From Escherichia coli (lineage in GTDB: Bacteria > Pseudomonadota > Gammaproteobacteria > Enterobacterales > Enterobacteriaceae): a stretch of DNA of 64,000 nt. The stretch lies in assembly GCF_003334385.1 (NCBI RefSeq), contig NZ_QOWN01000009.1; one strand, written 5' to 3'. Below, in pieces: positions 40,049-40,380 of this stretch (position 1 is its first letter; each line of letters opens with the position of its first letter). The notes under the pieces were generated by a model. The model worked only from the letters and a program-made list of their open reading frames with translations, had not been told where the DNA came from and did not search any database. The position numbers and the translations under genes were made by a program.

Positions 40049-40145
40049 TCCTTTGTCCTCTTTGGGGTAAATGTCCCTTTCAACATCATTGACTTTCAAA
40101 TGCGAGTCAAATGCATTTTTTTGCAAAAAGTGTTGGACAAGTGCG

Positions 40146-40164
40146 AATGAGAATGATTATTATT
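40146..40164 (+). promoter_or_regulatory. Fur box overlapping the ryhB promoter
   Basis: aatgagaatgattattatt matches the GATAATGATAATCATTATC Fur consensus at most positions, immediately 5' of the sRNA start. Confidence 0.75.
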
Positions 40165-40169
40165 GTCTC

Positions 40170-40259
40170 GCGATCAGGAAGACCCTCGCGGAGAACCTGA
40201 AAGCACGACATTGCTCACATTGCTTCCAGTATTACTTAGCCAGCCGGGTGCTGGCTTTT
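40170..40259 (+). ncRNA. ryhB: Fur-repressed iron-sparing small RNA RyhB
   Basis: gcgatcaggaagaccctcgcggagaacctgaaagcacgacattgctcacattgcttccagtattacttagccagccgggtgctggctttt ends in a terminator hairpin (gccagc-cgggt-gctggc) plus T-run; sits between yhhY and yhhX as in E. coli; sequence recognised from memory. Confidence 0.9.
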
Positions 40260-40380
40260 TTTTTGATCTTTCGTTCTCAATTTATCCACGGGAGTGCTTG
40301 TGTTCGTTATGCGCACTCCAGTAGGAACCACGTCCGCTTTGCGCTAAGGTGTAAATAACCACCTTAAAAAGGACGAAATC

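Follow-up and report, generated by a model that had tools for sequence, protein, structure and literature searches.

The closest described system is ryhB of Escherichia coli K-12 (b4451, also known as sraI; Rfam family RF00057). In K-12 MG1655, this ncRNA is annotated as 'small regulatory RNA RyhB'; it is encoded on the minus strand (3580922-3581016) and flanked by yhhX (b3440) and yhhY (b3441). RNase E-dependent co-degradation and an iron-sparing outcome are characteristic of the RyhB family. HrrF in Haemophilus and IsrR in Staphylococcus are, like RyhB, Fur-repressed iron-sparing sRNAs acting to down-regulate iron-using proteins, but their sequences and Rfam families are unrelated to it. PrrF, NrrF and FsrA are further Fur-repressed iron-sparing sRNAs that are unrelated to RyhB in sequence. 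The control region of ryhB was characterized by Chen et al. (2007), who listed a ryhB Fur site of 25.2 bits at position -15, one of four sites clustered within 31 bp (PMC2189734). An oligonucleotide with the predicted ryhB Fur site was gel-shifted by Fur, and ryhB is Fur-repressed (PMC2189734). The same work interprets the classic Fur box as the inner portion of a pair of overlapping 19-bp dimer sites with 6 bp spacing (PMC2189734). At the other end of the gene, Morita et al. reported a polyU of 9 for RyhB and a terminator hairpin with a ΔG of -10.7. Hfq binding requires the 3'-terminal polyU, and about 20% of polymerases pass the RyhB terminator (PMC4509938).

We analyzed a 64,000-nucleotide stretch of E. 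coli DNA, referred to here as the window. Its 40134-40264 region on the plus strand is almost certainly the chromosomal ryhB locus of an E. coli strain near K-12, composed of a sigma-70 promoter, a Fur operator, a 90-95-nt ncRNA and a Rho-independent terminator. A scan with Rfam 15 found RF00057 RyhB at 40199-40263 (+), with a score of 83.1 bits (gathering score, 55; E = 3.6e-14). The match spans model positions 1-67 of 67 and is thus full length. It is the sole Rfam match in the whole window at gathering thresholds, and a rescan of 39000-41500 with a permissive filter produced no further match besides RyhB. The yhhY-yhhX intergenic region is 100% identical to that of K-12 MG1655 over all 330 aligned window bases, and the annotated ryhB is identical to b4451 at 95 of 95 nt. 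No result of the analysis speaks against this assignment.

The surroundings of the gene are also those of K-12. The gene order yhhZ-yhhY-ryhB-yhhX-yhhW-gntR is common to the two sequences. The divergent neighbor is yhhY, which encodes an N-acetyltransferase (39560-40048, minus strand; mapped to K-12 b3441). On the ryhB strand, 116 nt 3' of the terminator, lies yhhX, which encodes a putative oxidoreductase (40381-41418, plus strand; mapped to K-12 b3440). The locus is therefore in the orthologous position. Blastn aligned the K-12 stretch to the window with 99.96% identity over 4931 bp, with 2 mismatches. The match stops at the position of IS1E in K-12 yrhA, which indicates that the window strain is near K-12 and does not carry that insertion. 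We found no difference between the window element and K-12 ryhB, which has the same neighbors, promoter, Fur operator and terminator; the surrounding strain differs by the 2 substitutions in 4931 bp and by a yrhA without IS1E. The ryhB gene at this locus is an already known, ordinary element. Since RyhB is a textbook iron-sparing sRNA, its presence here adds no new biology.

The initial annotation, made from the sequence alone, had identified the element as RyhB and called it known rather than novel. Both statements are correct, the former being confirmed by the Rfam match and the identity to K-12. The two checks it proposed, a covariance-model search and an alignment to annotated ryhB, were run. 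The covariance-model match exceeded the gathering score over the full model, and the alignment was 100% identical to K-12, with b4451 mapping to 40170-40264. The flanking genes it named, yhhY and yhhX, are borne out by the mapping of K-12 coordinates. Its dimensions needed adjustment. The gap between the two genes is 332 bp, not 330 bp, because the K-12 map puts yhhY at 39560-40048 and yhhX at 40381-41418. The gap was said to contain no ORF; it holds no gene annotated in K-12 or in strain E2865, but listed ORFs of 95, 54, 53, 34 and 31 aa cross it. The proposed span of 40140-40262 encloses most of the element, but it leaves out the -35 hexamer, located 1-6 nt before its start, and the K-12 annotation extends to 40264. 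Similarly, the transcript was given as 90 nt, whereas the K-12 RefSeq feature has 95 nt and extends to 40264, and a 90-nt transcript of the classical form would occupy 40170-40259 (+).

The promoter and the Fur operator are closely interwoven. A scan of 39900-40500 detected a single sigma-70-like promoter, TGGACA and TATTAT with an 18 nt spacer and 10 of 12 matches. The -35 hexamer is located at 40134-40139 (+), where the sequence was checked, and the -10 hexamer at 40158-40163 (+), which ends 7 nt before the annotated 5' end at 40170. The classic Fur consensus GATAATGATAATCATTATC, allowing up to 3 mismatches, has one match in the window, at 40149-40167 on the minus strand (16 of 19 positions; 0.01 expected). 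The 7-1-7 core TGATAATNATTATCA, allowing up to 2 mismatches, also has one, at 40148-40162 with 2 mismatches (0.14 expected). The center of this core, 40155, is at -15 relative to the ryhB 5' end. The string aatgagaatgattattatt, which the initial annotation had identified as a Fur box directly 5' of the start, was found at 40146-40164. It is a 19-bp (9-1-9) site centered at -15 and corresponds to the published -15 ryhB site (PMC2189734).

Judged from the sequence, the 19-mer at 40146-40164 (center -15) and the register at 40149-40167 (center -12) are one predicted operator in two descriptions. The operator so defined, 40146-40167, is placed by the consensus matches and the published -15 site, has no assigned strand and overlaps the -10 hexamer. 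It covers this hexamer and ends 3 nt before the transcription start, which fits repression by promoter occlusion. Iron-dependent expression has been reported for ryhB of the identical K-12 sequence (PMC8896160).

The ryhB transcript is located at 40170-40264 (+; 95 nt), as defined by the mapping of K-12 b4451 and by RF00057. Folding of the single sequence produced a 5' hairpin, a weak central hairpin bearing the core, an unpaired A/U-rich stretch and the terminator. The energy of this fold is not exceptional (z = -0.67; 48 of 200 shuffles do equally well), and we dropped it as evidence since this value is uninformative. A consensus fold was calculated with RNAalifold from 29 Enterobacteriaceae orthologues and defines the 5' domain, 40170-40204 (+). 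In this domain, a long-range helix between GCGAUCAGG (40170-40178) and CCUGAAAGC (40196-40204) encloses a variable hairpin, whereas the single-sequence minimum free energy (MFE) fold has a different, local 5' hairpin. The terminator is kept in the consensus. Compensatory changes were found in 0 of 17 pairs among the 29 orthologues. All 17 pairs are essentially invariant and the sequences too similar, so covariation speaks neither for nor against the internal structure. Compensatory changes in the terminator stem appear only in more distant homologues, with stems GCCCGC/GCGGGC, GGCCGGC/GCCGGCU and UGCCAGC/GCUGGCA.

Following the 5' domain, the conserved core and target-pairing region GCACGACAUUGCUCACAUUGCUUCC occupies 40203-40227 (+). 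It is supported by the exact presence of this 25-mer in other genomes and by its duplex with sodB. Within it, GACAUUGCU (40207-40215) is a perfect 9-bp complement of K-12 sodB from -4 to +5, across the start codon. The sodB sequence used was the K-12 start region, the strain's own sodB being outside the window. The duplex between the core and sodB has an energy of -18.0 kcal/mol, compared to -11.9 ± 2.8 for shuffled targets, and 30 of 1000 shuffles reach -18.0. A perfect run of 9 bp with sodB was attained in 6 of 1000 shuffles. The duplex calculated with full-length RyhB (-34.5 kcal/mol) was set aside because it ignores intramolecular structure and pairs everything, and the run restricted to the core was used instead.

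The 3' part of the transcript contains the Rho-independent terminator, 40238-40264 (+). The terminator scan identified a stem of 7 bp, AGCCAGC/GCTGGCT (40238-40256), that encloses a 5-nt loop (CGGGU in the RNA), and a run of nine T at 40256-40264. The terminator described in the initial annotation, gccagc-cgggt-gctggc plus a T-run, is present at 40239-40255 and is extended here to the 7-bp stem and T9. The A/U-rich stretch AGUAUUACUU (40228-40237, +) is located directly 5' of the terminator and is unpaired in the MFE, centroid and consensus folds. At the level of sequence, the locus has the components of an Hfq-binding module, namely the hairpin, a U9 tail (at least 7 are required) and the preceding A/U-rich AGUAUUACUU. 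By analogy with the module described for SgrS and RyhB (PMC4509938), we infer that AGUAUUACUU is probably part of the Hfq-binding module.

Since the window RNA is identical to the K-12 RNA, the established RyhB mechanism is expected to apply here. When iron is sufficient, Fe2+-Fur dimers would occupy 40146-40167 and block the promoter. When iron is scarce, Fur would depart and RyhB would be produced. Hfq would then bind the A/U-rich stretch, the terminator hairpin and the 3' U tail. The core, 40203-40227, is predicted to pair with mRNAs of non-essential iron-using proteins, the pairing with sodB spanning the start codon. Pairing would block translation and lead to RNase E-dependent decay, and iron would be spared. 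A minority of transcripts probably pass the terminator into yhhX.

The locus is highly conserved within E. coli. Of 5426 complete E. coli genomes, 5425 contain the ryhB intergenic region (40051-40380); its location is chromosomal in every case, and the median copy number is one. The single genome without a match may be that of the genome-reduced strain DGF-298, in which yrhB through yhhW, ryhB included, are reportedly deleted (PMC10652928). At least one complete E. coli genome has three places matching 40051-40380. We sampled four divergent copies in E. coli, which rank low in identity (98.5-99.1%). No difference was found among them in 40170-40264, in the Fur operator or in the promoter hexamers. 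They contain one substitution at 40169 and one change in the length of a T run upstream of the -35 hexamer, as well as 7 polymorphic columns in the 116 nt that separate the terminator from yhhX.

Outside E. coli, the exact 25-nt core (40203-40227) was found in at least 120 stretches in Enterobacterales, Vibrionales and Aeromonadales, with one genome per species. Since these loci were collected by an exact match to the core, its conservation among them is by construction; that of the Fur box, the terminator and the synteny is not. Fur boxes were scored in 116 stretches (115 from other genomes and the window itself), counting consensus matches of 14/19 or better in the 110 nt that precede the core. 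Among the matches listed, 113 of the 116 have such a box, compared to 26 of 2000 (about 1.3%) 110-nt segments drawn at random from these loci. Among the matches listed, 94 of 120 also have a T run of five or more preceded by a perfectly paired hairpin of at least 5 pairs. By tblastn, again among the matches listed, about 57 of the fetched loci have yhhY as the divergent neighbor, and 22 have yhhX downstream.

These relatives, which include Klebsiella ryhB and ryhB-2 and the multiple copies in Yersinia, Serratia, Photorhabdus and Pantoea, have the same 25-nt core as the window. Like the window element, they have an upstream Fur box, a hairpin and U-run terminator in most cases, and a divergent yhhY in many, among the matches listed. 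In contrast, their 5' domains differ from that of the window in sequence and length, and the distance from the Fur box to the core ranges from about -50 to -108. Vibrionaceae forms of RyhB are much longer 3' of the core than the window element. In Klebsiella, the gene 3' of ryhB is an ORF with a bactofilin domain, unlike yhhX in the window (PMC3423075).

Several of the fetched loci have unusual arrangements. The Fur box within 110 nt 5' of the core is weak or missing in L033 (Brenneria roseae, 8684-8708, minus strand), L099 (9432, plus strand) and L029 (Pantoea stewartii, 3035, plus strand), where the best Fur scores are 9/19, 11/19 and 13/19, respectively. L033 and L029 are second core copies; the other copies, L032 and L028, have a Fur box. 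From their upstream sequences, the cores in L033, L099 and L029 may be paralogues under different control. In Salinivibrio, two tandem RyhB cores are located about 306 nt apart, each with a Fur-like box (L058, S. sharmensis, 11696 + and 12002 +; L075, S. costicola, 10922 - and 11229 -). In Serratia plymuthica, the RyhB core is found at three separate loci (L045-L047).

The abundance of related copies bears on how the window element is to be classified. Paralogues of the RyhB core are common, as the core occurs at two or three places in several genomes (Serratia plymuthica L045-L047, for instance), and Klebsiella has ryhB-2 (PMC3415461). A degenerate or paralogous RyhB-like copy, comparable to the second copies in Salmonella, Klebsiella and Yersinia, could be present here in place of the functional orthologue. 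We consider this extremely improbable, since the element is 100% identical to the characterized K-12 gene in the orthologous yhhY-yhhX position, and the median copy number of the RyhB region is one per E. coli genome. Just as little probability is assigned to a small protein encoded at the site, for example by the 95-aa ORF at 40071-40358 (+) or the 53-aa ORF at 40163-40324 (+). Small ORFs do appear in the program-made ORF list, and nothing else speaks for coding. The 95-aa ORF begins upstream of the promoter and passes through the terminator. In the alignment of the 29 Enterobacteriaceae orthologues, the RNA differs by indels of 1 and 2 nt. These would disrupt any reading frame and therefore argue against coding constraint. 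With no CDS annotated at the site in the curated K-12 record or the PGAP records either, coding by a small ORF was rejected.

The position of yhhX raises a further question, because this gene is on the ryhB strand 116 nt past the T run, and the scan found no other promoter-like site in 40265-40380. The promoter at 40134-40163 could really be that of yhhX, the region acting in cis as a Fur-controlled leader or attenuator with the short RNA as a by-product. As cited in PMC2189734, the fragment had been isolated by Vassinova and Kozyrev as a Fur site of yhhX. Read-through of about 20% at the ryhB terminator has been reported and co-transcription suggested (PMC4509938). In a transcriptome from 2022, yhhX is up under iron limitation, and this response is lost on deletion of ryhB and its promoter (PMC8896160). 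However, the core that pairs in trans is conserved where yhhX is not located downstream, in Klebsiella (PMC3423075) and in many of the fetched loci that have yhhY but no yhhX. Within E. coli, the 95 nt of ryhB are invariant, whereas the downstream leader is polymorphic. Furthermore, read-through products no longer bind Hfq (PMC4509938), which indicates that the terminated form is the functional sRNA. A leader function for yhhX is compatible with these data as an additional role and not as a replacement of the sRNA, and we regard it as very unlikely that the region is primarily a yhhX leader.

With the rest of the ryhB sRNA locus settled, read-through into yhhX may plausibly be a secondary function of its promoter and terminator. 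Morita et al. (2015) stated that ryhB 'seems to be co-transcribed' with yhhX, experimental proof being absent at that time (PMC4509938). A parallel is sgrS-setA, in which, like in ryhB-yhhX, an sRNA with a leaky Rho-independent terminator is followed by a gene on the same strand, and termination is enhanced under stress (PMC4509938). The two differ in that co-transcription is only suggested for ryhB-yhhX (PMC4509938, PMC8896160) and in that RyhB encodes no peptide. We see about even chances that the ryhB terminator doubles as a condition-tuned attenuator, with read-through bringing yhhX into the Fur and iron-starvation response in an sRNA-mRNA operon like sgrS-setA.

The leader of yhhX contains two inverted repeats, ACGGGAGTGC/GCACTCCAGT (40288-40322) and TAAGGTG/CACCTTA (40345-40366). 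The latter directly precedes the Shine-Dalgarno sequence of yhhX. The first repeat has a 1-nt insertion in one arm in 4 of 4 other E. coli strains compared, and the second has a pair-breaking A-to-C change in 2 of the 4. Since they are polymorphic within E. coli, the leader hairpins seem unconstrained. On account of this insertion and pair-breaking substitution, we rejected them as a strong candidate for a conserved cis-element. In E. albertii and Citrobacter, conservation is limited to the final ~60 nt before yhhX. The core and the yhhX start are 301-351 nt apart in L005 (E. albertii), L037 (labelled E. coli, SCPM-O-B-8794) and L004 (Citrobacter werkmanii), compared to 178 nt in the window. 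These longer spacers suggest that typical E. coli has lost 120-170 nt of the ryhB-yhhX spacer. The post-terminator sequence in L005 and L037 also differs from that of the window and contains TTTCAGCCTGGCTTAC, which is common to Citrobacter.

The gene is largely invisible in routine annotation. Tracks based on ORFs miss ryhB, and the PGAP RefSeq records of strain E2865 and four other strains have no ryhB feature. Among the matches listed, 45 of 45 E. coli records have 'none' as the features under the match to 40051-40380. Among the records inspected, ryhB is named only in the curated K-12 record. Its absence from the ORF tracks and the PGAP records means that a scan of raw sequence needs a covariance-model pass, as otherwise the gap between yhhY and yhhX would be flagged as unexplained.

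Additional features were observed elsewhere in the window. Adjoining yhhY, 37001-39500 is an island of 33% G+C, compared to about 50-55% elsewhere in the window, with ORFs at 37654-38148 (-) and 38145-39323 (-). The island holds an intact 164-aa yrhA, which is split by IS1E in K-12 MG1655. It also holds the 392-aa yhhZ, annotated as 'putative endonuclease' in K-12 and as 'Hcp1 family type VI secretion system effector' by PGAP. At the other extreme, positions 1-7000, which from the K-12 map position would be the rhsB core, have a G+C content of 57-62%, well over that of the rest of the window.
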